Assembly: GCA_934133005.1 (NCBI GenBank)
Contig: CAKPAI010000001.1
Location: 298,769 to 362,768, forward strand
Length of the DNA stretch: 64,000 nucleotides
Source of the DNA: an uncultured Clostridia bacterium
GTDB taxonomy: Bacteria; Bacillota; Clostridia; TANB77; CAG-508
Reading direction: 5' to 3'
Shown: in pieces, positions 2,462-26,500 of the stretch
Numbering within the stretch: position 1 is the stretch's first letter
How the letters are laid out: the number at the start of each line of letters is the position of its first letter
Notes under the pieces: model-generated
What the model saw: the letters and a program-made list of their open reading frames with translations, nothing else
Told to the model about the DNA's origin: nothing
The model's database searches: none
Made by a program: the position numbers and the translations under genes

Positions 2462-2487
2462 AAAAGGCGAGTTGATTCTCGCCTTTT
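2462..2487. terminator. GC-rich hairpin AAAAGGCGAGttgattCTCGCCTTTT; bidirectional intrinsic terminator at 3' end of helicase gene
   Basis: 8-bp GC-containing stem with T/A runs on both sides. Overlaps stop of the 2486-5266 minus-strand gene. Confidence 0.6.
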
Positions 2488-5266
2488 ATATTGGATCTAT
2501 TTTTCTTTTAATAAGGATAACATCTTTATTGTCTTCAATATGTTTTATAGTCGATATGATTTTATTTTGGCATTCTGGTGACCAATATATTTTTAATTTT
2601 TCTTTTGCTCTTGTTATTGATGTATAAAAAATGCTATGTGTAATTAGTTCATCTATCTCATTTGTTATTATAACTTTAACAGAATTATATTCCAATCCTT
2701 GTGATTTGTGTATAGAAACAGCATATGCAACTGAAAAAGGTACAATTGTTGTTAAATCTGAATCATCATCCTCGTCAGCGTTTCTATACTTATTAACATA
2801 GAATTTTACAATTGATTTATTATTTTCAGATTCTCCTACCAATTCTAAATCTAAATATTGAATTTCCAATTCATTAATCACTTTATCTATTTCTACTGAA
2901 AACCAAAATCTAAATTCATCCTCTTCTATATCTACGATTCTTCCTTTTAAATTATTATATATTACTGGTGAAAATCTATTAGTATCTCCAAATATAATTG
3001 GATCTCCTACTTTATAAGTACCTAAATCTAGAACTATTGATTTGTTGTTATTGTCACTTTGCAAATAATAATTTATACTATTTATTCCATATAGTCCATC
3101 ATAATTTAGACATAGTATAATTTCATCTTCATCCTGCTTCTTAAATATTTCTTCACCAATTTCTTCTGAAAATTCTTTCTTTACTAACATTTCATCAACT
3201 CTATCATCGCCATTTCTGACCAATTCCCATAAATCTAACAATTCTTGTTTTGTACTTCTCCATGTAAAGTTTAATTCAAATACTGATGTTTGCTTTACTA
3301 ATTTTTTTGATAGTGTAAACCAGTTTCCAAATGTAATAGATTCAATCTGATAAATATCTCCAGCAAGCAATATAGCACTAAAATGTGCTTTTTCTAAAAT
3401 TTGTCTCATATCCGAATTACTAATTATACTACATTCATCAATTATTAAAATGTCGCATTCAGTATCATTATTAGACTCACTAATAAATTTATGTACTGTC
3501 ATAAAATTAGAATTTTGATTCTTTACATTACTCTTTAGATTTTCAACAGCTGAATTTGTATTAGCTAAACATATTTTCTTTTCATTATTATAAAAATATG
3601 TCAAATGTTTAATTAGTGTAGTTTTACCTGTTCCAGCTGCTCCATATATTAAGGCAACTGCACTATTTTCATACATATTTAACAATATATTTTCTTTTTC
3701 TGGACAATTAATCGCGTAAATTCCTTTATTTATAAAACTTTGAAATGATGCTTTATAGCCTTTTATCCCTTTATTTGTCAAGGAATTTAACTTATTAATT
3801 ATATTAATAGTATCATTTTCATATCCATGAATATACAAATTATTATTCTCTATTACCAAGCATCTGTTAGGTTTATGTTTATAATAGATTTTATTATTAT
3901 AAGACTCTACCAATGTTGGAATGTCTCCAAAATTTTTGACTTCATCTATGCTTGTATATAATTTATTATTTTGCTCTGTGTTTTTCTTGACATAACTTGC
4001 CAATAATTCATCATCTCTTCCTTCTATAGGTATTGTCTCTATCAAATCATATCTTGTTGGATTATGATTTATTAATGATGATGCATAAGGCATTTCTTCA
4101 AATGGAATACAACCCCATTGTAAATATAAATCTGATAAAATAGAACAACTATCTGTTGCAAGCTGATTTTTTATGATTCTATTATTGCAATTATATAATA
4201 AGTATCTTAATACAACATTTCCTTTTCTATTATTTTTTATATAATATCTACATTTATCAATTAAGTCTAATATTCCAGTAGTTGTAGAATTATATTTTAT
4301 TTTCTCTTTTGCTTTATCATAATATGTATTATTCATTGTTGCTAAATCTAATAAACTGTATTGTCCTCTTGTTAATAATCTCATAACCTCTAAATATTCT
4401 TTATTATTAGCCTTATAATTTTTATTTATTCCAAAAATTTTATAAAAATTATTTATTTCACATTCTCTTATTGCGACAGACCAATTGTTTATTATATTTA
4501 TTGACATATCTCTTCCAAGAATATTTACTTTTCTTTTAACAATAGATAACTTTATTGAATAATTTGGCATAATATGCATTCTTGTAAATGCTATTATTCT
4601 ATCATACTTATTAACTTTATCTTTAGCTGGTGACAGAGTGACTTCATAATAAATTTTTCCATTAACAAAAAAAGTTTTTATTTTTTGCACATAATATTTA
4701 TCTCCATTGAATTGAGCAGATGTATTAATTGGAACTTGTTTTATTACATCAGCAACTTTTTTATAGTAATCACTAAAAGTACTATCTAAATCAACAGGAA
4801 AATCAGTTATATTATTTAAAATATCTATGTTATAAATTATCTTCATATAATCTTTTAATAATATTAGATATTTATAATATTTAAGCATTAACCTTTCAGC
4901 AGAATCATCATTTTCAACGTAATGTGATCTAGATATTTGTAAATAATAATGAAATCTTTCAATAAATTTTATATTTCCCTTACATTTTATATCATCTAAT
5001 GCTATTCTAACTGTTTTATTATCATAATTAACAGTTTCTGTTTTTCCTGTTAAATATATCTTAACAGCAATATATTCTACAAAAGTTCTTAATGCATTTA
5101 ATAAATTTTGAGATAAAAATCCACGATCATTATCCGAAAATTTATTTATATTTCGTTCAATATTTGAATTAGCTTCCATTATTCTCTTATCTATACTATT
5201 AAAATTATATTTTTCTTCAATTTTTATCATCTTACTTAATCCTTTCTTGTATAATGTAAAAAGCAA
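2486..5266 (-). CDS. Large (926 aa) protein: ~500-aa N-terminal region of unknown function fused to RecD/Pif1-like SF1 helicase (AAA_30 + UvrD_C_2-like)
   Basis: Walker A LIYGAAGTGKTTLIKHL. Walker B ILIIDECSII. C-terminal VSIHKSQGLEYNSVKVII, the characteristic RecD-like UvrD_C_2 motif. N-terminal half has no recognisable motif. Confidence 0.7.
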   Translation of the reverse strand: MLFTLYKKGLSKMIKIEEKYNFNSIDKRIMEANSNIERNINKFSDNDRGFLSQNLLNALRTFVEYIAVKIYLTGKTETVNYDNKTVRIALDDIKCKGNIKFIERFHYYLQISRSHYVENDDSAERLMLKYYKYLILLKDYMKIIYNIDILNNITDFPVDLDSTFSDYYKKVADVIKQVPINTSAQFNGDKYYVQKIKTFFVNGKIYYEVTLSPAKDKVNKYDRIIAFTRMHIMPNYSIKLSIVKRKVNILGRDMSINIINNWSVAIRECEINNFYKIFGINKNYKANNKEYLEVMRLLTRGQYSLLDLATMNNTYYDKAKEKIKYNSTTTGILDLIDKCRYYIKNNRKGNVVLRYLLYNCNNRIIKNQLATDSCSILSDLYLQWGCIPFEEMPYASSLINHNPTRYDLIETIPIEGRDDELLASYVKKNTEQNNKLYTSIDEVKNFGDIPTLVESYNNKIYYKHKPNRCLVIENNNLYIHGYENDTINIINKLNSLTNKGIKGYKASFQSFINKGIYAINCPEKENILLNMYENSAVALIYGAAGTGKTTLIKHLTYFYNNEKKICLANTNSAVENLKSNVKNQNSNFMTVHKFISESNNDTECDILIIDECSIISNSDMRQILEKAHFSAILLAGDIYQIESITFGNWFTLSKKLVKQTSVFELNFTWRSTKQELLDLWELVRNGDDRVDEMLVKKEFSEEIGEEIFKKQDEDEIILCLNYDGLYGINSINYYLQSDNNNKSIVLDLGTYKVGDPIIFGDTNRFSPVIYNNLKGRIVDIEEDEFRFWFSVEIDKVINELEIQYLDLELVGESENNKSIVKFYVNKYRNADEDDDSDLTTIVPFSVAYAVSIHKSQGLEYNSVKVIITNEIDELITHSIFYTSITRAKEKLKIYWSPECQNKIISTIKHIEDNKDVILIKRKIDPI

Positions 5267-6370: not shown

Positions 6371-7822
6371 TTAATAAAATAAATTTTCTTTCATTTCAAT
6401 AACCTTTTTATCTATTTCTGAAAAATCATATACAGATGCAAAAATTACTTGATATTCTTTAAAATCACGCTCTAATATCTTTATCATAGCAATAGAAGCA
6501 TTACTTGTTAATTCATTAGTTCGTGGTGAATCAATTATTATAGGTAAATTCAGTCCATATCTATTTTTAATTTCTAATAAATATGCAATCTTAAAAGAAA
6601 ATGACATATGTGTCAAAATTCTTCCTGTTTTGCCTTTTAATTTATTTGTTAATACAAATTTAGAACTATCGCCAATATACTCATCAAATTTTAATTCTTT
6701 GGCATATTTTTTTATAGTATTATAAATTGAATTCAAATACATGTTATTTTCTGATAATATATTATGCAATTCATTCATCAATTTTTGTTTTCTTCTTGTT
6801 AATTGCCCAATTATTTTATCCATTTGTTTTTCATTAATATTGACATCTTTTAGCATCTCATCAACTTCTTCAGCAACAGTTTTTACATTAAATAAAATAT
6901 TTCTATCATTTAGCTCATCTTCAATTTTATTTATTTCGTTTTTAATTTTACCTAAATTTATTTCTAATTCTTTTTTTCTTGTTTCATAGAAAATCTGATT
7001 TTCATTATAATTTAATATATTATCTTTAGCTAGTTTAACGGAATTATCATTAGAAATTTTTACATATATATCTAACTTTTCAAGGTAGTCAACTAATTTT
7101 TTATTATCTTTTAAAATGCCACTAACATCTTTAATATCATTTTTTATTTCAGCCTCTCTTATTTTAAGTAATTTTAATTGACTATATAACTCGTTATCAT
7201 CATTCTTGGTATATGATGTAACTTCTTCAATAATATTTTCACTTTTATATTCCGCAATACTTTTTAGTGATCTATATTTTCGTATTTCATCTTCTATCTT
7301 TTTTATTTCATTATTAATTGAAGAAACATCTTTATCGGATAATGCAGAAATAAAATCTTCTATATTAAATCTGTTTTTTCCTATAATTATTCCTCTATTT
7401 AGAAGAGTCCATCCTTTTTCTTGGTCAATATAAAAAATAGCTAATAAATTATTTAGAATCATAATTTCACTTATGTTAAAAATTTTAGAATGTAGCTCAT
7501 ATAATTGTTCAGGTACTATATAAGTTATTTTCTCATTTTTTTCATTCAAAATAACAATATCTCCTTTTCGTTCAAGTGAATATTGTTGTTCATTTTCTAT
7601 TATATCTATATGTATAAAAAAATCATCAAAAGTCTTTATTCCATCTGTTGCAGGTATGTTATATCCTAGTCCGAATAGTATTGCTCTTAGCAAAGTTGTT
7701 TTTCCTTTTGAATTTTCTTTACTATAAATCAAATTAATCTTATCATCAAAAACAAACTCTCTATATTCATCTTTCCTTTGAATAATAACTTTTCTAATTT
7801 TCATATTTGTTAGCCCTTTCAA
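6371..7822 (-). CDS. lmuB: SMC/ABC-like coiled-coil ATPase; candidate Lamassu LmuB (DUF3732-like)
   Basis: Walker A SKGKTTLLRAILFGLG near N-terminus. ~300 aa of K/E/I/N-rich coiled-coil. C-terminal signature-like KGKTGRILTHMS and Walker B LPIIIDSP. Probable true ATG start at ~7804 (MKIRKV...), 5 nt after upstream stop. Confidence 0.5.
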   Translation of the reverse strand: MKGLTNMKIRKVIIQRKDEYREFVFDDKINLIYSKENSKGKTTLLRAILFGLGYNIPATDGIKTFDDFFIHIDIIENEQQYSLERKGDIVILNEKNEKITYIVPEQLYELHSKIFNISEIMILNNLLAIFYIDQEKGWTLLNRGIIIGKNRFNIEDFISALSDKDVSSINNEIKKIEDEIRKYRSLKSIAEYKSENIIEEVTSYTKNDDNELYSQLKLLKIREAEIKNDIKDVSGILKDNKKLVDYLEKLDIYVKISNDNSVKLAKDNILNYNENQIFYETRKKELEINLGKIKNEINKIEDELNDRNILFNVKTVAEEVDEMLKDVNINEKQMDKIIGQLTRRKQKLMNELHNILSENNMYLNSIYNTIKKYAKELKFDEYIGDSSKFVLTNKLKGKTGRILTHMSFSFKIAYLLEIKNRYGLNLPIIIDSPRTNELTSNASIAMIKILERDFKEYQVIFASVYDFSEIDKKVIEMKENLFY

Positions 7823-8819
7823 ACATTTGCATTATATTTCCTTTTCTTATGAATATTTTTTTTGCAATAATTTTTGAGCAAGCTTTCTCTATAGTTTCCA
7901 TATTGCTATCTTTATTATTTTTAAAAACTATATCGTATATTTCGTTTTCATATTTAATAACAAACTGATTGCTTCTTATTTCTTTATCTTCGATTTTAGC
8001 TTTCATTATTAAATTGCTAATCTTATTATATACATCAAAGTCAGCTTCTTTATAGTTTATTATCCTATCATACGTATCTAATGCTTCAAAAAAAGTTTCT
8101 TCTTCAATTTCCATACTTTCGTCAAACTTTATTGAGTTTCCATCGCCTAATTTTAAGATTAAAAGTCTCCACAAAACATCTTCCTTTTTAAATTTTAATT
8201 TCATATTATTTTGAGTTGCATTATGTAGTGCTTCTGACTCTAACATTTGTAGGAATCTATTTTTATATGGTAGTAAATCCGAACTGATAAAAGTTAAAAA
8301 GTCTTCAATTTTGGCAATTATATATTTCTGTTTTGTTTCTTTATCTTCACCAAAAAAAGGGACTTTAGCAATTATTAATTTATCCCTATTTATGTTCTTT
8401 TGTAATTGATTAAGTTGAATATCAATTTTTTCTTTTGAAGCTAAAGATAATTCATTATATTTGAAAAATGATACTAATTCAAATTCATTTGTTCCAGAGT
8501 TTAATGGGTTCGGTTCTAAATTACTTATATATATTAGGCTTTCTGAATCATTATCATTAACATCTGATAATGATTCCAAAGCCTTTCTTAATTTTGTTGA
8601 ATATGAACTCGTATCACCATCATTAATATTTTGTTTTGATTTTGCTTGTGCATAAATTTTTTTACTATTATTTAATGAAATTTCAATATCTTCCTTTTCT
8701 CCTTCTATCTTCATTTCTTTAAATTTTCCAAAATATTTTATCATTAAATATATAGCTATATTAATTTGAAATTGCCATCCAAAAGCACTTGCACTTGCAT
8801 TTCTATTTATAGCTTTCAT
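7794..8819 (-). CDS. lmuA: PD-(D/E)xK-type nuclease-like protein; candidate Lamassu LmuA (DUF4297/Cap4-nuclease-like N-terminus)
   Basis: N-terminal ASAFGWQFQINIAIYLMIKYF followed by IEGEKEDIEISLNN...YAQAKS, a G-aromatic-x-aromatic-Q then E-x-E-D then Q-x-K pattern. Directly upstream of and operonic with the SMC-like ATPase. Confidence 0.45.
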   Translation of the reverse strand: MKAINRNASASAFGWQFQINIAIYLMIKYFGKFKEMKIEGEKEDIEISLNNSKKIYAQAKSKQNINDGDTSSYSTKLRKALESLSDVNDNDSESLIYISNLEPNPLNSGTNEFELVSFFKYNELSLASKEKIDIQLNQLQKNINRDKLIIAKVPFFGEDKETKQKYIIAKIEDFLTFISSDLLPYKNRFLQMLESEALHNATQNNMKLKFKKEDVLWRLLILKLGDGNSIKFDESMEIEEETFFEALDTYDRIINYKEADFDVYNKISNLIMKAKIEDKEIRSNQFVIKYENEIYDIVFKNNKDSNMETIEKACSKIIAKKIFIRKGNIMQMFERANKYEN

Positions 8820-8904
8820 TTATATTACCTTCTACTCATAAAAATTTAAATTTGGCAAAATTTTAGTAATTTTAATTATTTTTATTATAAGTCAATTTTT
8901 AAAT

Positions 8905-9924
8905 TTATTCTTCCACTTCAATTACAGGTATAAATAATTTCTTTAATTTTATGGTATCTTTAAATTTCTCTGACATATCATCATAGTATTTTAAAATTAA
9001 ATCTACTAATTCACTTCCATTAATAGATTTTATTATTGGATGCTTTTCTAAATATATTTTAGCATTTTTTGCATAATCTGATAAAGTTACAAATAAACCA
9101 TAATCTCCTTCGTCCATAGTTCCTTTTAATGATTGTACTGTAGATTCTGTGATATTTCCATCTTGGCTTTTTACTTGTACAATAATTCTTGGTGGCAATT
9201 CATCTTTATATGCAATAATGTCTTTTCCATTATCTCCTCCGTGAGGACTAATTTTTGTTCTATATCCCATTGCATTTAATAAATCTGCGACAACATCCTC
9301 CAATTCATATCCTTTAAAATTTTTATTTAACTCTTTTAATACATAATCTTTGGTACTTTCTAATATAGTCTCTGAAGTCGCAAATACATTATCGTCATTT
9401 TCTTGATTATTTTTTACCTTCTTTCCATTGTGAAGAGCATTTATAAATTCATCTGCATAATGCCTTACTTGAAAAAATGATAAAAATGATCCTATTTCAT
9501 ATAATGCACCTTGCGAAAATTCTTCTCTTGGTAATTTTTTTAACCATTTTACTTTTCTCTTTTGATTATATTCTGTTTCTCTACTATCAAAGAAATATTC
9601 CCCTTCAATTTGTCCAATATTAATCATTCTATTAAATTTTGTTGGATATATCACATAATCTCCTATTTTAGCTTCATTAACAAATCTAAATAGTTGTCCT
9701 GCAGAACCTGCTATAGATTGTTTAGATTTGTTTGGATAAACTTTATCATAGGCCTTATAATAAGATTCTCTATCTGTATCTATTGTGGATAAATCTCCCA
9801 TTTCATGCCAACCTATAGCTATGACTTCATCTTGTAATAATAAATTTTCATTATTCGTATTATGAATTCCCCAAACTATTATTTCCTCACTCATTATTTT
9901 TCCTTTTATGTTATATTTAATCAC
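8905..9924 (-). CDS. mrr: Type IV (modification-dependent) restriction endonuclease Mrr (Mrr_N winged-helix + Mrr_cat PD-(D/E)xK)
   Basis: Catalytic-domain motif ISPHGGDNGKDIIAYKDELPPRIIVQVKSQ, matching GxDxGxD ... VQxK of Mrr_cat. N-terminal ~110 aa resembles Mrr_N. Confidence 0.8.
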   Translation of the reverse strand: MIKYNIKGKIMSEEIIVWGIHNTNNENLLLQDEVIAIGWHEMGDLSTIDTDRESYYKAYDKVYPNKSKQSIAGSAGQLFRFVNEAKIGDYVIYPTKFNRMINIGQIEGEYFFDSRETEYNQKRKVKWLKKLPREEFSQGALYEIGSFLSFFQVRHYADEFINALHNGKKVKNNQENDDNVFATSETILESTKDYVLKELNKNFKGYELEDVVADLLNAMGYRTKISPHGGDNGKDIIAYKDELPPRIIVQVKSQDGNITESTVQSLKGTMDEGDYGLFVTLSDYAKNAKIYLEKHPIIKSINGSELVDLILKYYDDMSEKFKDTIKLKKLFIPVIEVEE

Positions 9925-10070: not shown

Positions 10071-13000
10071 CTATTTTATTCTAGAATCAATATATTTCCA
10101 TTCGTCATCTGTTATATTCCATTTTTCACAAAGATACTTATCTGTATAAATCCTATCGTACTTTCCTAAATCAGGTACAAAACAAAATTTATTTCTTAAT
10201 ACATCTTGTGAAACAACAGCTTGTAAAAGTAAAAATCTTATTGTTTTAGTAAATAAATATGATTTAAAATTTTTAACTTCTTCTTCTGTATCAAAAGCTC
10301 CTGCTACAATAAATGATTCTGTACAACATTCACCTGGTTTAGCAATATTCGTATTACCATCATAATAAAATCCAACTGGTTTAGTGAAATCTGTTTGTCC
10401 AGCAATTGGAGATCTAGGAACCAGTAATTTCCATTTATTTAATAATTTATTTTCATCATGTATATCTTTTAAATCGGCATATCTCTTTCCAATCTTTTGT
10501 ATAAACCAGCAAGGAACCCCTTTATCTTTAGGTTTATAATTCGTTGGTAGTCCAAAAGGTTTTTGTGGGGATACCACATTTTCTAGTGTTTTACCATTTT
10601 CTTGTACATTAAAGACTTTCCTAATAATTGGAATAGCTTGGTTAAATCTCACAAATGTATTAAATTCATTTAAATTTCTTGATGAAGAATATTTAACATT
10701 GTTTATAACATTAGTAACTTCACATTCTGTTTTATTATTTTTATCCCATAAGAAATAATTAACACCACCTGCAATATCAGCTGAATCAAAAACATCTCTA
10801 GTATTAGGATAATCAATAATTTTTGTTAAGCATGTATCATTTAGCATATCTTTTCTAAACTCATTCAATCCCATACCTCCAGAAAACCATCTCGATGGAG
10901 TAATCATGCTTATATATTTAGAATCTATTGATTTTGACATATTTATAAACAAATTATATATTGGTTTAGCCTGTGTACCATATCCACCAGTAATTTCTTG
11001 ATATGGAGGGTTTCCAACCACTGCATCGAATTTCATTTGCACTCCTTCCTTATTCCAACTATTAGCATTTAATACATAATTAGTAACTGCTGTTATATTT
11101 TCATCTAATTTAGTTGCAACATCTTCTATTAGTAAAGTATTTACATTATATTCTTTATAACCTGCTAATGTTCTTTTTACAATTTGCATTGCCATTTTAG
11201 TTTTACAAATTATAAAAATATTATTTTCTAATGTTTCTCTCCAAAAATCTTCATTTTTTTCTTCCGTGTAATCTTGCTTATTATAATTTAACAGTCTGTT
11301 CATGTATATACTATAAGAACAATACAAAGCATATAAACCTGTTTTTGAATTTATTTCTAATATTTTAACCTCATTATTCTCAAATAAATCCTTGGTAACA
11401 TTTCCTTGGTTTATAAATCTTGGTTCTTTATCTGGATAATTAAAATTATATCCTCCAATACAGTCTCCTAAATGCATATTTACTGTTTTCCAAGGTGTAA
11501 GTACAGTTTCTTTATCTGGATTTCTAAACATTGAGAATATTTCAGCTAGCTTTTGTATTCTTTCTTTTATAGGCAATGTGTCTGCATATAATGTTGAATT
11601 TCTAATTTGTCTTCCAGCTTCAATAAATATTTCATTATCATAATATTTAGAGAACTTTTTAAATACATCTTTTGTAACGCCATTAGGCATAAATTCATTC
11701 CATGATTTATCATCTACTAATTCAATAAAATTTTGGCTGTCAATATCTTTATTTATTTCAATATCTGCTCCATATATTAGTAATGGTATTCTTATTGATA
11801 TTCCTCTCAATATCGACATTGCTGTTGAAGCTTGTTTTTTCTTTTCTTTTTCTTCTTCAAGTAGTCTTTTTTCTTCTTCAGTTAGCTCTCTCTTAGGTTT
11901 CTTTTTGGCTTCTTCTAATTTCTCATATTCTTCATTATTAAATCCCTGATTGTTAATATCAATACTATCAATTCTTTTTGTTTGTTTACTAACTCCAACT
12001 ATTTTCTTTAAATCATCAAACTCTTTCAAATCTATTTCATCCATTTTTAGTAGATTATCATTATAAATATTTTTATCATCAAATCCATTGGTTACAACTC
12101 TTTGAGCTACTGCTTTTTTTAATTCTCTTAACATTTGAGTAACATCATATTTAATCATTTTAGAACCATCAATTCCAATAATTGGGCAAAAATTTAGAAA
12201 ATGGCTCATAATTTCTTGTGATTGAACTGAACCTGGTCTTACTGATAATTGACCTGCCTGTGCGGCCATTTTTAATGTTCTATCTGGAGCAAAATCAAAC
12301 ACATAACATTTCTCTTTAACTTTGCCTCCAATTTTAGCTGGTGTTTGAACTCTAAATATTGTTTGTAAATAACTAGAAGCCGATGTGGAATATGAGCCAG
12401 AAAGCATGAAAACAGCTGTCCATTCTGGTACACTAACTCCTGTAGTTAATCTTCCACATGAAATTGTAATAGTATTAGTTTCTTCTGGCTTATCTGTTAT
12501 TGCTGTTCTTACCTTCTTTAGAGCTTCTTCATATTTTTCTTCTTCATCACCATTTCCTGCTACATTAACAATCTGAAACATTCCAGATCCAAATACTTCA
12601 TGTTCTTTTAATAATTTACTTAAAGCTTTAGCCTCTTTAACTCCTGGTACCATCCATAATGAATGCCTAAAATATTCAATATACTCTTTAGTTGAATATG
12701 GATAATTAGAATTCTCGTCCTGCTTAGACAATAAATTTAAAAACCTATTTATATCATCTTTATGTACAAAATCTCCTTTTTCATATCCTTTTGGAATAGG
12801 TTTTCGATCAATCTCTAATTCTCCTGTCCAAGTTCTAAAAAATTCTCTAAAGTTAAATGCATTATCCGATACATCCACATATCTAGGCATCAATTTATCT
12901 AAATAATATGTATAAATATTAAGTTGTGGCAAATCGCTATACGGATTAGAATCTCCAAAATGTTCTATATCTGCATCCCATTCTAATTTAGCTGATTGTT

Positions 13001-14012
13001 CCATAATGTAATCCCATGTATAAATTTCATCTTCTTTAAAATCACTTAGTAAATTAAATGGTGTTCCAGATAACATCAATACTTTAGTTTTATAATCATC
13101 ATGTATCTTTACGACACCATCGATTGTCTTTTCTCCTAAACTTGTTCTTGTTCCTTCATGTGCCTCATCAATTACAACTAAGTCCCAGTTATTATTGAAA
13201 ATTAGTTCATCTTTATCAAAATTACCACCTACTTCTGATGATCCTCTTAAATCTTGAATAGAAGCAAAATATACAAATGGTTTATCGCTATCAATTAAAC
13301 TTTCTATATTTTCTCCAAAAGTTTTAGAACCATATTTATAATCACTATCTTTTGAAAATATTTTATTAAAGTCTTCAAACCATCCATTATTTACGACTGG
13401 TCTATGCGTAATTATTATTGTTTTTTTATACTTCTGCCTTCTTACTATTTCTAATGCAGTTAATGTTTTACCAAAACGCATTTTAGCATTCCAAAGCATA
13501 ATATCACTTTTTTTAAAATTTTCAATCGTTTTCTTTATTGCTTCTTCCTGTTCAGGTCTAAATACAATTGGATCCCTATCATAAGAGATCTCTTTTGCAG
13601 TTAACGCTTGTCTATTGTCTTTAACAGCCTTAATAGCTTGCTTAGCAGTTTCCAAATCCACAACAAACCATTCGTTTTGTTTATTCTCTGTATCAAAATA
13701 ATATCTTTCTAATCCGGACCTTAATAAAACATTATGAACTTTTGTATCTTTAAATGAATTACCGTTATTGTCAACTGCTAATTCTGTATATAATAATTCA
13801 TATTTTATACCAGCTGTTGATGTATAACTATTAATCCTATTTTTAGCGGCCTCATTTAATTCTTCAGAATTTGGTTGCAATTCTAACAAAGATTTATTTG
13901 TATGAACTGTAGCCTCTCCTATTTTCAATTTTCCACTATGAAATTCATCATTAATTCTAAAAATATAAATCAACTTATAGCTAAATGTCGACGTAAATTT
14001 ATTTGTTTCCAT
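10071..14012 (-). CDS. 1313-aa three-domain fusion: T5orf172/GIY-YIG-like N-terminal domain + SF2 (ResIII/DEAD-like) helicase + gamma-class N6-adenine DNA methyltransferase; Type ISP/IIG-like single-polypeptide RM candidate
   Basis: N-term YKLIYIFRINDEFHSGKLKIGEAT...NEWFVV (GIY..KIG.T..EWF pattern). Helicase motif I MRFGKTLTALE, II LVVIDEAHEG, III VLMLSGTPFN, VI QTIFRVQTP. MTase motif X TVLTPWKTVNM, motif I ILEINSKTGLYALY, motif IV AVVGNPPYQE. ~300 aa follow NPPY and could be the TRD. Confidence 0.7.
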   Translation of the reverse strand: METNKFTSTFSYKLIYIFRINDEFHSGKLKIGEATVHTNKSLLELQPNSEELNEAAKNRINSYTSTAGIKYELLYTELAVDNNGNSFKDTKVHNVLLRSGLERYYFDTENKQNEWFVVDLETAKQAIKAVKDNRQALTAKEISYDRDPIVFRPEQEEAIKKTIENFKKSDIMLWNAKMRFGKTLTALEIVRRQKYKKTIIITHRPVVNNGWFEDFNKIFSKDSDYKYGSKTFGENIESLIDSDKPFVYFASIQDLRGSSEVGGNFDKDELIFNNNWDLVVIDEAHEGTRTSLGEKTIDGVVKIHDDYKTKVLMLSGTPFNLLSDFKEDEIYTWDYIMEQSAKLEWDADIEHFGDSNPYSDLPQLNIYTYYLDKLMPRYVDVSDNAFNFREFFRTWTGELEIDRKPIPKGYEKGDFVHKDDINRFLNLLSKQDENSNYPYSTKEYIEYFRHSLWMVPGVKEAKALSKLLKEHEVFGSGMFQIVNVAGNGDEEEKYEEALKKVRTAITDKPEETNTITISCGRLTTGVSVPEWTAVFMLSGSYSTSASSYLQTIFRVQTPAKIGGKVKEKCYVFDFAPDRTLKMAAQAGQLSVRPGSVQSQEIMSHFLNFCPIIGIDGSKMIKYDVTQMLRELKKAVAQRVVTNGFDDKNIYNDNLLKMDEIDLKEFDDLKKIVGVSKQTKRIDSIDINNQGFNNEEYEKLEEAKKKPKRELTEEEKRLLEEEKEKKKQASTAMSILRGISIRIPLLIYGADIEINKDIDSQNFIELVDDKSWNEFMPNGVTKDVFKKFSKYYDNEIFIEAGRQIRNSTLYADTLPIKERIQKLAEIFSMFRNPDKETVLTPWKTVNMHLGDCIGGYNFNYPDKEPRFINQGNVTKDLFENNEVKILEINSKTGLYALYCSYSIYMNRLLNYNKQDYTEEKNEDFWRETLENNIFIICKTKMAMQIVKRTLAGYKEYNVNTLLIEDVATKLDENITAVTNYVLNANSWNKEGVQMKFDAVVGNPPYQEITGGYGTQAKPIYNLFINMSKSIDSKYISMITPSRWFSGGMGLNEFRKDMLNDTCLTKIIDYPNTRDVFDSADIAGGVNYFLWDKNNKTECEVTNVINNVKYSSSRNLNEFNTFVRFNQAIPIIRKVFNVQENGKTLENVVSPQKPFGLPTNYKPKDKGVPCWFIQKIGKRYADLKDIHDENKLLNKWKLLVPRSPIAGQTDFTKPVGFYYDGNTNIAKPGECCTESFIVAGAFDTEEEVKNFKSYLFTKTIRFLLLQAVVSQDVLRNKFCFVPDLGKYDRIYTDKYLCEKWNITDDEWKYIDSRIK

Positions 14013-14991
14013 TTTTTCTACTCCTATTTAATAATGTAGTATATTTTATTGGTCTATTAGTTTCCCAATTCATTATTTTACAATAAATTCCATTATGTTT
14101 TTTATAATTATTTTTTTCACAGCCTATACAACTTATTTTTTGTGGCACATCTCCAAATAATGACATATTAATTACTTCATCTGTTTTGCAACTATATGGA
14201 ACTACAAATTTTGTGCCGTCCATTTGCCACACATTCCAAGAAATAATTTTCGCAATCTCTATAATATCTTCAATAAGTGGTTTTTCTTTAAATTTGTATA
14301 AATAATTATCTATAAATGTATACAACAAATTTTCTCTTGCAATCAACAAATTATCTCCTTGAAATTCAAAACCATAAGTATTTTTATATGCTTTCTGTAC
14401 CCAATCCATCCATTCTAACTTATCATTTACATTTTCATTTATAACTCTTAATTTTCTATCTAATAATCCTATCCTATTATTTACTTCTATAATATCACCT
14501 GAAACATTATCATATCTACTTACCAAATATGGTGCTTCTCCACAGGATACTTCCAATCTAGTATTGTAAACATAATCTTGCCATGTTTTATTCGTTTTAG
14601 TTGGAAAATTTATTTTTTCCTTATTTGAAATCCAACTTTTATCACTCTCAATATTAAAAAAACTATCTTCCCCTGACCAAGCATTATCTATTAAATTATT
14701 TTGTGAATTACAAATCCAAGATGGAGTAAAAACTTCAGCCTTATCTCTTATTCTCTTTTCTTGTTCTTTTTTACTTTTCTTTACTCTAGGTTTAATTACA
14801 TTTCCATTATAGCCTGTAATATTTTCAATTTTTATATTATCTTTAACTCCAAATCCTATACCTTTATCTCTATAATTATCAGTAGCCCAAATAATATTGT
14901 TATTTGTCGTATGATCTTTAAGAAGGATATGTAATAATTCATAATTTGTTTTTAGCAATATATTTTCCTGTATATCTGCACTATTTTCCAT
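13999..14991 (-). CDS. Hypothetical 330-aa protein translationally coupled (start/stop overlap) to the helicase-MTase fusion; Cys-rich C-terminus
   Basis: Its stop overlaps the ATG of the downstream 1313-aa gene. Contains AEVFTPSWICN but no MTase motif I/IV. C-terminal CIGCEKNNYKKHNGIYCKIMNW cluster. Function unassigned. Confidence 0.5.
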   Translation of the reverse strand: MENSADIQENILLKTNYELLHILLKDHTTNNNIIWATDNYRDKGIGFGVKDNIKIENITGYNGNVIKPRVKKSKKEQEKRIRDKAEVFTPSWICNSQNNLIDNAWSGEDSFFNIESDKSWISNKEKINFPTKTNKTWQDYVYNTRLEVSCGEAPYLVSRYDNVSGDIIEVNNRIGLLDRKLRVINENVNDKLEWMDWVQKAYKNTYGFEFQGDNLLIARENLLYTFIDNYLYKFKEKPLIEDIIEIAKIISWNVWQMDGTKFVVPYSCKTDEVINMSLFGDVPQKISCIGCEKNNYKKHNGIYCKIMNWETNRPIKYTTLLNRSRKNGNK

Positions 14992-16032: not shown

Positions 16033-16887
16033 TTAGCATTTAGTTTTATCGCTTTTGCTAGCTTTTTCTTTTTCATTTATATCATTTTTTATGAGTGAAA
16101 TTCCATAACACATTTTGTATAAAATTTGTATGAATTCTTCTGCTAATTTCCTATTTTCAATAGCAATTTTCTCCAACAATTCTTCTCTTGTATATCTAGT
16201 TGTAATTACTATTGGTAACTCGTTTTCATATCTATTGTTAATAATTCTATACAACTTTTCTAAAGCCCATTTAGTTATTGTTTCACTCCCAAAATCATCG
16301 ATAATTAACATATCAACATTAGAATAAAGTTCCATAATTTCTGACTCTGTCGTAACAGTTTTATTAAAAGATTCTTTTATTCTATCTGTTATAGATCTAG
16401 TCCTTTCCAATAATGCAATTTTTTTATTTCTAATAATCTCATTAGCAATACTTGCTGCTAAATGAGTGTTTTCATATCCTATACTTCCATATATAATAAT
16501 TCCATCTTTAACTTTATTTTCTATACATAAATGTGTATATTTCATTAATGTTGTTATTGTTTCTTGGTTATCTTTAAATCTATCAAAATTTAAAAAATTA
16601 CAATATTTTAATTTCTTTTTTATACAACCATCCTTATATATTTTATTTATAATTTCTCTATACTTTCTTTGTTTTTCTTTTTCATTTTGCTTTGAATCAT
16701 ATTGTTTCCAAAATGCAATTGCTTCACTACAATCACACCTTTCATATTCTACCATATCGTGATTAACATTTGCATAAAGATAACTTAATCCTAATGGCTT
16801 TAATTTTTTATTGCAAAATCCACATTTTGCACCTTCATTGGTGATAACTTTAAAATTCACATTTTCTAAATCCACTTCTATTCTCAT
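16033..16887 (-). CDS. DnaC/IstB-like AAA+ helicase loader with N-terminal Zn-finger (phage replication protein)
   Basis: Walker B-like MLIIDDFGSE. LPIVITTRYTREEL (DnaC box). N-terminal CGFCNKK...CDCSE cysteine pairs. Confidence 0.65.
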   Translation of the reverse strand: MRIEVDLENVNFKVITNEGAKCGFCNKKLKPLGLSYLYANVNHDMVEYERCDCSEAIAFWKQYDSKQNEKEKQRKYREIINKIYKDGCIKKKLKYCNFLNFDRFKDNQETITTLMKYTHLCIENKVKDGIIIYGSIGYENTHLAASIANEIIRNKKIALLERTRSITDRIKESFNKTVTTESEIMELYSNVDMLIIDDFGSETITKWALEKLYRIINNRYENELPIVITTRYTREELLEKIAIENRKLAEEFIQILYKMCYGISLIKNDINEKEKASKSDKTKC

Positions 16888-17359
16888 CTCCTTCTTTAGC
16901 TAATATATTTTTAATCTTATTTTCTTCTTGTGTGTTATCCAACGTTATTGTAACGTTACTTTCTTCTTTTTCACTTTTCAACTTTTCACGATATTTTTGT
17001 TGTCTAATTCTATTTTGTTCTTTATATTTTTCATATGGCTCAATGCTTTGATACTTGTCCCAATTTTTAATTTTATATGCTTCATCTTCTACAATTAGCA
17101 TATTTAATTCTAGAAATTTTTGAATAATTTTTTCGATTTTTTTCTTAGATTTTCCCATAATCTTTGAAAAATTTTCTATTGTCATTGGTTTATTATTGCC
17201 TATTACTAATTTTCCATTTCTATTGCATTCTACAGCAATAATTAATAATTGAATCCATACTCTAAAATATGTATCTCCATCTGGTTCTCTTAACAGTATT
17301 TGAATTTTCCTATTTGAAAATATTTTTAATTCTATTTTCAACCATTGTAAACTATACAT
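16850..17359 (-). CDS. Phage replisome organizer N-terminal domain protein (DnaD-like)
   Basis: MYSLQWLKIELKIFSNRKIQILLREPDGDTYFRVWIQLLIIAVECNRNGKLV matches the conserved WIKL..IF...KI..L...P.GD...WI.LL.A..N..G.L pattern of phage_rep_org_N. Confidence 0.7.
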   Translation of the reverse strand: MYSLQWLKIELKIFSNRKIQILLREPDGDTYFRVWIQLLIIAVECNRNGKLVIGNNKPMTIENFSKIMGKSKKKIEKIIQKFLELNMLIVEDEAYKIKNWDKYQSIEPYEKYKEQNRIRQQKYREKLKSEKEESNVTITLDNTQEENKIKNILAKEGDENRSGFRKCEF

Positions 17360-19733: not shown

Positions 19734-21032
19734 TTAAACCCTTATTGGAACATCAATTTTTCCTTTAGCTATACATACATTATTTTTTATTATATATGCT
19801 TCAACATAATGGTCACCATCAAATTTAGAATATTCAGTATGTGTATAACTATTTGTTTCTAAAATTTGTCCCCTAATATCGTTTTTTTGCTTAGCTAAAT
19901 CTCCTTCGTTTTTTACTTTCCAAAGAATTTTATCTATACCATAATTCATAATTTCTGCTTTATTTACTATGTAAAATTCTAATTTTTTATCCCTCTTTAG
20001 AAACACATGATTTGTTATCATATCCCTTAAACTAGCTGGGCGGAATCCATCTTGTGTTACTATACAATCCAATTTTAAATTTAATACTACATCAACAGGA
20101 TATTCATCTTCAATAAATTCTTCTGTATGATCATAAGTGTATTGTTCTTTTTCTTCTTCCTCATTTTGTGCTTTAGGAAATTCTTTTCCAAAAAGATTTC
20201 TTAATTCTTTATTTAAATTTTTAGAATCCTCATTTAAATCTTTAATTTTGTTATAAGCTTTTTTGGCTTTTTTTACGAATTTTCCTCCATCATCATTATA
20301 TATTTTTTGATTACTTCCTATTGCAAACCAATAACTCTGATCTTTATCTTCATTCTTTAAGAACTCAAAAATATCTTTAACTAGATTTAAATAATCTTCA
20401 TATCCACAATTTTGATATTCCTTCTTCTTTTCAGGGAAATTATTAGTTAAAGTATCAATTAATAAGCCTTTAAATTTAAAACCTTTTTTGTTTTTCCATG
20501 ATCTAAGCATATGACATATATTTGTAAAATTTCCATTTGTGTCATCATCTTTTTTCTTACATTCGTCTATTTCTGGAATTGGATTTGTAATCTTCCAGCT
20601 TCCTCCATCATTTGTATCTGGATATTTAAATGAATCATCATTTTGCTTAAATCCTGGAACTAATTCTACTGTGTATTTTGTAAAGTTTATTACTACAACT
20701 TGTCCATCACCTTTTAAGTCTGTATTAGGATATTTTTCTTTCAATACATTTTTTACTTCTTGTAATAATTGAGATTGTTTATTTCCATCATTATCATTTA
20801 TTCTATCATAAACACTCTTAGGTAGATTAAAAAGTATGTCCAAATCACTTGTATTTTTTATTGCTGTAGTTCTACCAACTGAACCTACAATATACATATT
20901 AGATTCGTCATCATCTATGTCATAATAATGTTTATTTAATTTTTTTGTAATGCCTTTTACTGTTGTTTGCATATCTTCAAAATTATCTAGTTTTATGTTG
21001 TTACAGAAATCACAAAAATCATCTTTAATCAT
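19734..21032 (-). CDS. Pol-beta-superfamily nucleotidyltransferase, SMODS/CD-NTase-like (432 aa)
   Basis: GSVGRTTAIKNTSDLDILF = GS-x11-DhDh nucleotidyltransferase active-site motif. ~230-aa C-terminal extension. ATG immediately abuts stop of upstream 2TM gene. Confidence 0.55.
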   Translation of the reverse strand: MIKDDFCDFCNNIKLDNFEDMQTTVKGITKKLNKHYYDIDDDESNMYIVGSVGRTTAIKNTSDLDILFNLPKSVYDRINDNDGNKQSQLLQEVKNVLKEKYPNTDLKGDGQVVVINFTKYTVELVPGFKQNDDSFKYPDTNDGGSWKITNPIPEIDECKKKDDDTNGNFTNICHMLRSWKNKKGFKFKGLLIDTLTNNFPEKKKEYQNCGYEDYLNLVKDIFEFLKNEDKDQSYWFAIGSNQKIYNDDGGKFVKKAKKAYNKIKDLNEDSKNLNKELRNLFGKEFPKAQNEEEEKEQYTYDHTEEFIEDEYPVDVVLNLKLDCIVTQDGFRPASLRDMITNHVFLKRDKKLEFYIVNKAEIMNYGIDKILWKVKNEGDLAKQKNDIRGQILETNSYTHTEYSKFDGDHYVEAYIIKNNVCIAKGKIDVPIRV

Positions 21033-21578
21033 TTATTTTCCCTTTCTAAGCTCTACAGGTAAATAGCTATCTATTTCTTCATCTGAAAATGTATTATCTT
21101 TTTGTATTTTTAAAGCTTTTGATGCTTTTTTTACAGCTCTATCACATGTAGATAAGCTTTTCTTGCATATATTATGATATTTTAATAATATCTCATCTCT
21201 CTTCTTAGTAGCTTCATCCAATTCTATCTTATTTAATTTTATATCTGATAATACACAAATGGTTTCATTTTTTAATTGTAAAAATTCTAATGCGCTTAAT
21301 TTATGACTATCTCTTGATTCTTTTAAATTATATGTTTTATAAAAAGTATTTATAAATAGACATATAGCTGAAAAAACAGTGGTAATTATCTTTAAAGCAA
21401 CTTCATCAATAAAAAAGCAAGTTAATAATCCTGATGTAGTAATTGCTGAAGATAATATCTTGCAAAATTCTAAAACATTAAACCAAAAAGAATTAATATC
21501 ACTATGTTTTTCATGAATTTTATGGTTCCATACTATTGATGCAAAAATTTGTCTTATCTCTGATTCTATTATATTCAT
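21033..21578 (-). CDS. Two-TM helix protein, SLATT-like candidate membrane effector (181 aa)
   Basis: Two adjacent hydrophobic helices (FNVLEFCKILSSAITTSGLLTCFFI ; ALKIITTVFSAICLFINTFY) followed by ~100-aa helical/coiled C-terminus. Directly upstream of the nucleotidyltransferase. Confidence 0.45.
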   Translation of the reverse strand: MNIIESEIRQIFASIVWNHKIHEKHSDINSFWFNVLEFCKILSSAITTSGLLTCFFIDEVALKIITTVFSAICLFINTFYKTYNLKESRDSHKLSALEFLQLKNETICVLSDIKLNKIELDEATKKRDEILLKYHNICKKSLSTCDRAVKKASKALKIQKDNTFSDEEIDSYLPVELRKGK

Positions 21579-21823: not shown

Positions 21824-23017
21824 ATGGCTGGGAGTATAGAAAAAAGAGGAAAAAATAGTTACAGGCTAACAGTATCTGAAGGATTTGGCCTAAACGGAAG
21901 ACCTATGATACACAGAAAAACAGTCCACGGGACTAAAAAAGATGCAGAAGTTGAACTAGCAAAATTTGTTACTGAAGTACAAAATGGTTTAGTACTTGAT
22001 GGTAAATCTCTTAAATTTTCTGAATTTACAGAAATATGGAAAAGAGATTATGGTTCAAAAGAACTTGCTCCATCAACATATAAAAGATATTGTAGAATGT
22101 TAGAAACAAGACTTTTACCATACTTTGGACATTTTTATATTAACAAAATAAAACCAACTGACATTATGAAATTCTATGACTTACTTGAAAAGGATACTCA
22201 GTTAGTTAGGAAAAAAGGTAACAATGGTTCAAAAACAAAAAAGCCCTTATCTGGTAAAACAATTTTAGAGCATCACAGATTATTACGAGCAATGCTTCAT
22301 AAAGCAGTTTATTGGCAATTAATAGTGGCGAATCCTGCTGAACGTGTTCAACCACCTAAAGCTAGAAAACCAAAAAGAAGATCTTATGATGATGAGCAAA
22401 CTAAAATATTACTAGAAAATTTAGAACTATTATCTAGCGAAGATACTAAATACAAAGTTGCAATCATCCTTACAGTATTTACTGGTGTTCGTTTAGGCGA
22501 GTTAATGGGTCTAGAATGGCAAGATGTTGATTTTAAAAACGGAATTATCAGTATTAATCGTTCTAGTCAGTACCTAGCAGATATGGGAGTTTTCACAAAA
22601 GTTCCAAAAACAGAAAGTTCCATTAGAGAAATTGCAATACCTGAATTTATTATTTCTTTACTTGAGAAATATAAGTTATGGTATGAAGAACAAAAATCGA
22701 TTTACGGCGAATTATGGACGAATTCCGATAGGTTATTTGTACAAGCAGATGGCAAACCAATGCATCCTTCTACAATTAGCAAATGGTTTGTAAAATATGT
22801 TGGTCAAATAGGATTACCTGTAATTAATTTTCACGGATTAAGACATACAAATGCAAGTTTACTAGTTGCACAAAATATTGATATAGCAGTAATTTCTGCG
22901 AGACTAGGACATGCACAAATAAGTACTACACTTGATTTTTATGTGCATCCACTACTTTCTCACAATAGAAAAGCTGGATATGCACTAGAAAATTTGTTAT
23001 TACCAACAAGGTCTTAA
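21824..23017 (+). CDS. int: Tyrosine site-specific integrase (phage integrase family, AP2-like arm-binding N-terminal domain)
   Basis: N-term KRGKNSYRLTVSEGFGLNGRPMIHRKTVHGTKKDAEVEL (arm-binding domain). C-terminal HGLRHTNASLL...LGHAQISTTLDFYVH (R..HxxR..Y catalytic box region). Confidence 0.85.
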   Translation: MAGSIEKRGKNSYRLTVSEGFGLNGRPMIHRKTVHGTKKDAEVELAKFVTEVQNGLVLDGKSLKFSEFTEIWKRDYGSKELAPSTYKRYCRMLETRLLPYFGHFYINKIKPTDIMKFYDLLEKDTQLVRKKGNNGSKTKKPLSGKTILEHHRLLRAMLHKAVYWQLIVANPAERVQPPKARKPKRRSYDDEQTKILLENLELLSSEDTKYKVAIILTVFTGVRLGELMGLEWQDVDFKNGIISINRSSQYLADMGVFTKVPKTESSIREIAIPEFIISLLEKYKLWYEEQKSIYGELWTNSDRLFVQADGKPMHPSTISKWFVKYVGQIGLPVINFHGLRHTNASLLVAQNIDIAVISARLGHAQISTTLDFYVHPLLSHNRKAGYALENLLLPTRS

Positions 23018-23259: not shown

Positions 23260-23299
23260 GGCATTTGAGGTATTTATTTTACCCAATTTTTACCCAATT
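23260..23299 (+). repeat. Arm-type direct repeat A2 (GGCATTTGAGGTATTTATTTTACCCAATTTTTACCCAATT) ~120 bp inside middle core
   Basis: Matches 1939-1979 including tandem TTTTACCCAATT x2. Confidence 0.55.
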
Positions 23300-23579: not shown

Positions 23580-26500
23580 TTATCCCACATTATCATTATA
23601 AAAATCTTTTTCTTCATCTATCATTTTGTTTCTAAACATTCTTGTTATTTTAAAATATTGTGCTCTTCTCATCATACTTATTTTAATTACATTACTTGTA
23701 GTAATATGATAGCAATTATATAATATTTCATTTAATTCTTTTTTATTTTCACTAAAATACATTCTTTCAAATTTTCCTAACAATTGATCTATACTTGTAA
23801 TATATTCAACATCATCAATATTTTGTAGTGCTTTTTCTATAAATTTCAAAACAGTTGCTGATTTTATATCATTTTGCTTTATAGTACACAATTCTATCAT
23901 ATTATTTAATAAAACATTATTTGAAATATTATCTAAATTATTATAATTTTGATTTATTATATCATTTAATGTATATTTTTTCATTTTTGACTCTATATTT
24001 AAACAATCTTGTATAGTTCCTTTATCACTAAGAATTCTATTTATATCATCAGTAACAGTTTCTAAATTTTTATTATCAAATGATTTTCCTATAAATTTAA
24101 ATGCTTTATCATAATTAAATCCCTCTAAATCTTTAATATTTCTATTTAGTTCATATATTTTTGATATATAACTAAAATGTTCATCTAGTGCATCAATTAC
24201 TATATTAGGACTGTTTGCTAATTTTATATTATCCACTAAAAATTGCACATATTCTGTCAAATTATCATTTTCACCGCAAAAGAATTTTCTATTATTCCTT
24301 AATATACTAAAACTATCTTCATATGTACTCGTATTTAGGTGTTCATTTAACTTTGGTATTAACAGTTTCATTATATTATCTGGTATTTCATCTTTTAAAA
24401 GCTTGAACGGTAAAATTGCTCTTTCTGGATAGTTATTATAAGCTGATATAACTGTTTTTAAGTATTCTTCCAACTTATCATCACTTATATATTCTTTTGC
24501 ATAAATAACCACCTCATATGTATAATTAAAATATGTCTTATATGATGGATATGATTTATATTTTTTTATTATCGTATCTTCTATAAATTTAGTAATATAT
24601 GATGCGTTTTCTTTTATACATAAGTATTTAAATATTTGTTTTTCTCTTGAATATTCCTTAGATGTATTAAATGCAGACAATTCTGTTAATTTTTCAAATA
24701 TAGTATCTAATATATTTTCATCCAGATATATTACTATATCTTTAAATATTTCATCATATTTTTCGTTTTTGAATATAGTTTCAGTTATATTAGTTAAGGT
24801 CTCTTCTATATATTGTATATTATCTTTGTCTTTAATCAAAATGTTTTTTATAAGTTCTTGAGCTTTCTCTTGCTCTAAGTTATCATTTAAATATTGATCT
24901 ATGTCTTCGCTATTTTCGTCGTTTATTTCGAAATTTATTTTATTTAATATATCTAAAGCATTTACTTTATCTTGACTCTTAGATGTTGCTATTATGTTAG
25001 CTATTTCTGTACCTTTATTTACATCTATATTGTTGCATAATTCCTTTGTAAATAGTCTATTTAGCCTTTCAAGTAATTTAGTATATTTAAATAGTACTAT
25101 TATGTCATCTATGGAATCTAATACTTTATCAACTTTGTCTAGTTCTTTGAAATACTCTTCATATTTAGATAGAATCTTCTCTGAAAAGTCGTTACTTGTA
25201 TCCATATATTTACATAGTGTATTAAATAGTTGATTCCCAAAATATTCTACAAAAATGGTCTGTTCTTTAATATTTACTTTTTCAATAAATATATTAATTT
25301 TTTCTGTATTATTTTCTATTACTTTACAAATAAACTCTTTAAAATTGCCCTTTATATTACTTTCTAAGTTATCTTTTTCTTCTAAATATTTATTTATAAT
25401 TTCTATGTTTTTATCCAAATCTGTATTTTCTTTTGCACAATCTATATATTTATCTAAAAGTTTATTTATGTATTCTTTTTTATTTGCTAATTTTAATATA
25501 GAAAACACATTGTTTATATTTAGTTCTAAAATATTTATTTCTTCTTTAGTATAATCTAAATTATATATTTTTTCTGATAAGTTTTCAGCAATAATAGTCT
25601 TATTCTCTTCTTTTATAACATCAAAAGAATTTATTATTGTTATTATTCCATTTAATAAATCTGTATCTTCTGCATTATCTAGCTCATACATAATTGAATC
25701 AATCATATTGTCATTTTCTTCAATCATTTTTCTGACTGTTTTTGTATTTTTGCTCTCCATAGCTGAAACAATACGTCTATTATTTTCATCACCTGTTTTT
25801 ATACTTATTTCATCTTGTATTAAATACATAAATGGTGCTATATTATTGACTTGATATTTTTCAGTTTGCTTCAAAAAATTTATTAACGGTTCATATTCTG
25901 ATTTTATTTCAGCCTTAATATTTTCTTCATTACCTTTCTGTTCAAAAAATATTTGTAAATCTTCATCTATTTCGTTTATTTTTTTGCTTGTTTCATGTAA
26001 GTCAACAATTCTTTTTATATAATTGAAGTTTCTAAATAACACATCATAAAAATCATTAAAATCAGCTTGTAAAACTGATATCTTTGCTAATTGCAAATCA
26101 GATTCTTCACTATCTAATAAATTTTTTTCAATTTTTCCATTTTTGCTTCTATTGGTCATTAATATTTTATTGTTAACAAATGTATTTATAAGTTTTTTTA
26201 CTTGTCTAGGTGTAGTTACATTTTTGTGTATTAATACCTTTCTAATTACACTTTCCAGTCTATTCATTGTGCAATACTCTTCTATAAAATCCGGTATATT
26301 CTCTTGTACTAAATTTACTGCATATTCTTTTATATCAAAATCTAATAATGGTGGTATATATATTTTATATTGAAACAACTTGTCTAATATTAGCTCACTT
26401 TCTACCATTTGATGATTACCATCTAATTTTATTGTTCTGTTTTGGTCTAATGCCTTTTTTAAAATTGAATCATCAAAAGGAACTATAAAAATACAATTCT

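Follow-up and report, generated by a model that had tools for sequence, protein, structure and literature searches.

Does the tightly coupled gene pair at positions 6371 to 8819 of the 64,000-nucleotide window analysed here, a stretch of DNA from an uncultured gut Clostridia bacterium, encode a complete defence system, and if so, of which kind? A first-pass annotation, made from the sequence letters, had read the two genes as Lamassu-like. We conclude, with a probability of about 75%, that the pair is a compact Lamassu defence module, type I-like (without LmuC) and complete in itself, which acts by releasing its effector, protein A. The homology, fold, catalytic residues, conserved operon and defence-island context of the pair carry this case, and they point to a real and intact member of type I Lamassu, compact and divergent, which already has a catalogue entry as the candidate PDC-M46. 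The pair occupies about 2.45 kb of the minus strand:

8819..7794, minus strand: gene A, LmuA-like effector, 341 amino acids, ATG start; matches PDC-M46A
7804..6371, minus strand: gene B, LmuB-like SMC/Rad50-type ABC ATPase, 477 amino acids; matches PDC-M46B
8820..8904, minus strand: 85-nt intergenic region 5' of A, with a possible promoter and a GAAGG ribosome-binding site, read from the sequence

Both open reading frames (ORFs) lie where the first-pass annotation had placed them, on the minus strand. As listed, the ORF of gene B runs from a TTG at 7822 to 6371 and encodes 483 amino acids. Its real start is most likely the ATG at 7804, because the PADLOC profile begins at residue 7 of the listed ORF and the homologues are 477 amino acids long. 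With this start, gene B overlaps the end of gene A, stop codon included, by 11 nt. The GC content of the pair's DNA is 21-25%; stop codons are frequent in such AT-rich DNA, and ORFs as long as those of A and B are therefore not due to chance. Three antisense ORFs within the pair (82, 75 and 64 amino acids) were taken to be spurious low-complexity frames of AT-rich DNA. A promoter scan at 23% GC gave 45 sites against 34 expected, a count that the AT-rich DNA makes uninformative.

To which family do the two proteins belong? In PADLOC, the adjacent genes match both profiles of PDC-M46: residues 4-332 of A match positions 3-329 of 335 in PDC-M46A (4.3e-59), and residues 7-482 of the 483-residue ORF of B match positions 1-476 of 483 in PDC-M46B (8.9e-135). 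PDC-M46 is thus the catalogue entry for the pair's own family, with no structural difference between them. It is an unpublished PADLOC candidate (PADLOC-DB v2) with no published function or validation, for which an overlap with Lamassu calls has been noted (PMC11811056); the supplements of that paper give no DefenseFinder name for it. B is also matched by several PADLOC LmuB models, with E-values from 4.7e-16 (PDLC00252, the best) to 4e-5, and by PDC-M22B. In addition, we built profiles from the A and B family alignments and searched them against all PDB sequences. The B profile had one significant relative, BcLmuB (9ux7_A; 1.6e-6 over residues 9-459), and the sole relative of the A profile was BcLmuA (9ux7_C; 0.016, or 0.0033 with a broader alignment). 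Bacillus cellulasensis NIO-1130 is the source of entry 9ux7, the type I Lamassu BcLmuAB (bioRxiv 10.1101/2025.06.23.660979). Because the two partners fall on the two chains of a single entry, the evidence is stronger than the E-values taken one by one. Profiles were needed to see these links: PDB searches with the single sequences returned nothing for A and, for B, only LmuB at E 8.3.

The predicted structure of A agrees with this placement. Its parts are:

8340..8819, minus strand: A residues 1-160, Cap4-type PD-(D/E)xK nuclease domain
8640..8705, minus strand: A residues 39-60, predicted active site (E39, D44, E46, Q58, K60), with little or no variation in 62 homologues
7797..8327, minus strand: A residues 165-341, all-helical C-terminal domain, presumed to serve LmuB docking and oligomerisation

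The AlphaFold2 model of A (predicted local distance difference test, pLDDT, 86; predicted template modelling score 0.85) consists of an alpha/beta N-terminal domain, residues ~1-160, and an all-helical C-terminal domain, residues 165-338. In Foldseek, BcLmuA was the best structural match to this model, followed by Cap4 nucleases; type II LmuA was also matched (E 1.3e-4). The match to BcLmuA spans both the nuclease and the C-terminal domain, whereas the Cap4 matches cover only ~170 residues. A therefore carries both an N-terminal effector domain and an LmuA-type C-terminal domain, as does BcLmuA; A is the longer of the two, at 341 amino acids against 315. Cap4 itself, the effector nuclease of CBASS, combines DUF4297 with a SAVED domain. 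A has no SAVED or CARF sensor, its C-terminal half being all-helical and aligning with the LmuA C-terminal domain; moreover, its partner is an SMC-like ATPase rather than a cyclase, and Pfam DUF4297 does not match it. The motifs of A are F13-G-W-Q-F-Q18, E41-K-E-D44 and Q58-A-K60, and G14, F17, Q18, E39, D44, Q58 and K60 are invariant in the 62 homologues. When the family profile was aligned with the PDB sequence, K60 fell on K59 of BcLmuA, and a K59A mutant of BcLmuA shows reduced defence (bioRxiv 10.1101/2025.06.23.660979).

Protein B has the parts of an SMC-like ATPase with a short arm:

7694..7723, minus strand: B residues 28-37, Walker A (S-K-E-N-S-K-G-K-T-T), with G34, K35 and T37 invariant
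7409..7432, minus strand: B residues 125-132, Q-loop region (Y-I-D-Q-E-K-G-W), invariant in 59 homologues
6752..7324, minus strand: B residues 161-351, antiparallel coiled-coil arm with an elbow at 190-198 / 303-313, from AlphaFold, where pLDDT dips
7010..7075, minus strand: B residues 244-265, arm apex, a cysteine-free beta-hairpin replacing the zinc hook
6623..6640, minus strand: B residues 389-394, signature-like motif (L-K-G-K-T-G), with L389, K390 and G394 conserved
6512..6547, minus strand: B residues 420-431, deviant Walker B (L-P-I-I-I-D-S-P-R-T-N-E), with D425, S426 and E431 invariant

The AlphaFold2 model of B (pLDDT 84) has a Rad50-like head. Its arm is formed by helices 161-243 and 266-351, which are joined at the tip by a beta-hairpin (247-257; strands 247-251 and 254-257), and its topology resembles the kinked arm of BcLmuB. 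The best Foldseek match to this model was again BcLmuB (9ux7_A; 6.1e-15), ahead of SeLmuB, YydD, VcLmuB, SbcC and Rad50, so that BcLmuAB is the best PDB match of both A and B by sequence profile and by fold alike. The motif cores of B are N31-S-K-G-K-T-T37 in Walker A and I-I-I-D425-S in Walker B, and G34, K35, T37, D127, Q128, D425, S426, E431 and Q452 are invariant in its 59 homologues. All the motifs that the first-pass annotation had quoted for A and B were found, and they are conserved across the 62 A and 59 B homologues.

These motifs have counterparts in BcLmuB, which has the same Walker A, FYIDQ Q-loop, deviant Walker B (D-S ... N-E) and kinked coiled coil. In the alignment of the family profile with the PDB sequence, K35 of B corresponds to K37 of BcLmuB, and a K37A mutation abolishes the ATPase activity of that protein (bioRxiv 10.1101/2025.06.23.660979). 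Similarly, FYIDQEKGW of B aligns with FYIDQDDSW, the signature-like motif with ISG-SG, and LPIIIDSPRTNE with IPFCMDSFIKNE of BcLmuB, which shares the deviant D-S form of Walker B. The Walker B consensus of short Lamassu is hhhhD[Q/S/T/E] (PMC12663957), and the IIID-S of B fits it. The catalytic residues of the pair are thus intact: the nuclease lysine, the Walker A lysine and Walker B are all invariant in ~60 homologues.

The arm apex is where B departs from BcLmuB. Its apex stretch aligns with the CQYC hook region of BcLmuB, but B contains no cysteine at all, and none of the 59 homologues has a CxxC at the apex; B therefore lacks the CxxC zinc hook of Lamassu and has a cysteine-free beta-hairpin in its place. 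The hook is not strictly defining, as short LmuB proteins carry 0, 1 or 2 CxxC. At 477 amino acids, B is 85 shorter than BcLmuB (562) and ~120 below the average of short LmuB (~600; PMC12663957), in line with the earlier remark that this ATPase is short for an LmuB.

Which known system does the pair resemble most? BcLmuAB (PDB 9ux7/9ux8), of clade S of short Lamassu, has the same composition: lmuA followed by lmuB and no LmuC. Type II Lamassu, or ABC-3C (VcDdmABC, 9uxh and 9nxx; Salmonella LmuACB, 9hqu and 9hr5), shares an LmuB-type ATPase and a Cap4-type LmuA with the pair; B matches it structurally at E 4.7e-11, and VcLmuB, like B, is without a zinc hook. However, type II requires a middle component, LmuC, that is absent here, and its LmuB is ~630-650 amino acids long with a D-Q Walker B. 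We ruled out a type II or ABC-3C identity because no middle component is present between the overlapping genes or conserved in their flanks. With SbcCD and Rad50-Mre11, B shares an ABC head and an antiparallel coiled coil (Foldseek ~1e-9), and SbcCD has been proposed as the ancestor of Lamassu (PMC12663957). Unlike these proteins, B has a far shorter arm, no zinc hook, a deviant Walker B and no Mre11/SbcD phosphoesterase as its partner.

We asked whether the two genes travel together. A scan of one genome per species gave 67 loci, 65 of them with a match to A. B follows A directly in ~58 of these 65, mostly with a 4-nt overlap, where the genes in the window overlap by 11 nt. A and B also diverge in a correlated manner (Spearman 0.71), and homologue lengths are very constant (327-349 amino acids for A, 471-492 for B), with Pfam labels on none. 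We found no conserved third gene: after clustering of the flanking ORFs of the ~58 loci, no family was present in more than eight. An LmuC-like third gene was rejected on this result, and the earlier statement that no small lmuC-like gene is evident stands, since the overlap of A and B leaves no room for one and the relatives conserve none.

The family is large and mobile. For A, an exhaustive profile search found 723 clusters (50% identity), of which 282 lie below 1e-30. Among the hosts are Clostridia, Bacilli, Gastranaerophilales, Akkermansia, Coriobacteriaceae and Deferrimicrobium, and the A family is frequent in human-gut Clostridia and Bacilli; one locus, from a human-gut Clostridiales metagenome-assembled genome, is 99% identical to the window. 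Recombinases and HTH proteins recur as neighbours, and PADLOC scans of recurrent neighbours identified restriction-modification enzymes of types I, II and IIG as well as a PDC-S02 nuclease. The pair is also found on eight lactic-acid-bacteria plasmids and in Ruminococcus phage NatCom_2329, whose records annotate it as hypothetical proteins, with the exception of one 'AAA family ATPase'. On one of these plasmids, of only 7.6 kb and from L. plantarum, the pair is the main cargo and lies beside a YafQ/Phd toxin-antitoxin pair; in NatCom_2329 it lies near one end of the genome. Among the phage and small-plasmid loci, relatives of the pair occupy 1011-3517 of L068 and 967-3397 of L069.

The pair's immediate neighbours in the window are an Mrr-like nuclease and an HTH-Fic protein, one on each side; around them extends a dense defence island, which also holds a type IIG-like enzyme and CBASS:

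2486-5266, minus strand: RecD-like SF1 helicase, 926 amino acids, with a long N-terminal extension; matches PDC-S53 end to end, 1160.7 bits
5311-6246, minus strand: HTH_3 and Fic protein, directly downstream of the pair; PDC-S04 8e-108, SoFic 2e-24
8905-9924, minus strand: Mrr-like nuclease, 339 amino acids, C-terminal Mrr_cat, directly upstream of the pair; PDC-S02 5e-123
10071-14991, minus strand: a 1313-amino-acid type IIG/ISP-like fusion of T5orf172, ResIII helicase and Eco57I-type methylase, together with a separate methyltransferase
13999-14991, minus strand: type II methyltransferase (5e-129), directly upstream of the 1313-amino-acid fusion, with a 14-nt overlap
16033-17359, minus strand: phage-type replication module, a replisome organiser (Phage_rep_org_N) and an IstB/DnaC-like ATPase
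19734-21578, minus strand: type I CBASS-like pair, 2TM effector followed by the cyclase
21033-21578, minus strand: CBASS 2TM effector; PADLOC Effector 4.6e-51
19734-21032, minus strand: SMODS and AGS_C oligonucleotide cyclase, 1.9e-163
21824-23017, plus strand: tyrosine integrase, just inside the right repeat copy
23580-27308, minus strand: 1242-amino-acid ORF just outside the right repeat; partial PifA (6.6e-18) and QatA-like matches

A perfect 24-nt direct repeat, ATTTTACCCAATTTTTACCCAATT, occurs at 1956-1979 and again at 23276-23299, 21,320 nt apart, and flanks the whole defence island. These repeats are candidate att sites of an integrative element of ~21.3 kb. The replication module within the island hints that the element is a satellite, or derives from a phage, and is not a plain genomic island, and the 1242-amino-acid ORF may be a further defence gene at an integration hotspot.

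How firmly can the pair be assigned to Lamassu? A number of findings weigh against the assignment. No PADLOC LmuA model matches A; scans of A, B and their aligned homologues with Pfam, NCBIfam and PHROGs gave noise only; and neither DUF4297 nor DUF3732 appeared at E<=1 in A, B or any of the aligned homologues (21 of A and 18 of B), so that the Pfam search proposed by the first-pass annotation came out negative for both proteins and all 39 homologues. Two remote-homologue searches for a link between A and DUF4297, one by profile word index and one exhaustive over representatives, gave, among the top matches listed, full-length family members without Pfam labels throughout. The sequence link of A spans ~50 residues at E 0.003-0.016, and identity is only ~14% to BcLmuA and ~19% to BcLmuB, which weakens the case further. 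The hook at the tip of the BcLmuB arm lies near the LmuA docking site; B has no hook and a shorter arm, so its docking geometry may differ, another weakening point. Finally, the PDC-M46 family is an experimentally uncharacterised candidate. An RloA/RloB-type match was likewise absent from the PADLOC, Pfam and NCBIfam scans, in which no Rlo model was explicitly checked. We take the lack of a Pfam or PADLOC LmuA match to mean that the pair is a divergent relative with a catalogue entry of its own, PDC-M46; the PADLOC LmuB models, the profile matches to 9ux7 and the best AlphaFold/Foldseek matches nevertheless bear out its original reading as Lamassu-like.

Could such divergence mean a different way of working? 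PDC-M46 might stand as a nuclease-ATPase defence system of its own, with Lamassu ancestry but another mechanism. For example, A and B could stay together as a stable complex: B would load onto DNA or clamp it and steer A straight to the cutting of foreign DNA, with no release, tetramerisation or abortive infection. [quoted passage not shown] Against this, working Lamassu systems without a hook are known (e.g. VcLmuB), the best structural match of A takes in both the nuclease and the C-terminal domain of BcLmuA, and the literature treats the LmuA C-terminal domain as a conserved element of sequestration and oligomerisation. We therefore regard a distinct system as unlikely. Less probable again is a housekeeping or mobile-element role, such as SbcCD-like processing or repair of DNA ends, or plasmid or phage maintenance or competition. 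B is structurally near SbcC and Rad50, some small lactic-acid-bacteria plasmids carry the pair as their main cargo, and a phage genome also contains it; however, A is a Cap4/LmuA-type effector and not an Mre11/SbcD phosphoesterase, the distribution is patchy and mobile, beside restriction-modification and other defence genes, and the pair in the window sits within a defence island on an integrative element. Plasmids and phages, moreover, often carry defence genes. The pair could also belong to a larger system with the upstream Mrr-like nuclease or the downstream HTH-Fic protein, as all these genes lie on one strand, separated by short gaps in which no terminator is predicted (a terminator scan is weak at 23% GC). 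We rejected such an operon and consider it very improbable, since the neighbours vary across the ~58 loci, as the flanking families described above indicate, and since PADLOC has a separate single-gene candidate for each of the two proteins, PDC-S02 for the Mrr-like and PDC-S04/SoFic for the Fic protein.

If the pair is a compact, LmuC-less Lamassu module, how might it work? Studies of BcLmuAB, SeLmuACB and VcLmuACB provide the analogy for a 2:1 complex, the sensing of DNA ends, the release and tetramerisation of A, and the resulting phenotype. The two head halves of B are joined by the short, kinked coiled-coil arm, and B probably dimerises. The B dimer would sequester one monomer of A through the helical C-terminal domain, thereby keeping the Cap4-type PD-(D/E)xK nuclease monomeric and inactive. 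Binding of the dimer to foreign DNA ends or aberrant replication structures would release A, a step that the deviant Walker B site, turning over ATP slowly, may modulate. Freed A would then tetramerise through its C-terminal domain and cut DNA non-specifically, and the resulting degradation would kill or arrest the infected cell (abortive infection) or destroy an incoming plasmid.

More tentatively, the family may form a separate 'mini' size class of Lamassu, with the shortest LmuB arm known and with dimerisation by a cysteine-free hairpin instead of a hook. It is similarly conceivable, though doubtful, that such a class would differ in the geometry of dimerisation and of effector holding. The class would take in hundreds of 50%-identity clusters from several phyla, plasmids and one phage, and if it is real, the 2.45 kb pair would be a minimal model for SMC-based immunity.

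The general picture of how Lamassu works is unchanged by this pair. Our analysis provides a mechanism-level annotation for a widespread gene pair that is labelled 'hypothetical protein' in RefSeq/GenBank and is an unnamed candidate in PADLOC, and it links PDC-M46 with type I Lamassu. Since the large A family lies outside Pfam, current Pfam-based counts of Lamassu probably miss it. In addition, the ~2.45 kb hook-less pair could be a convenient minimal system in which to study SMC-like sensing of foreign DNA.

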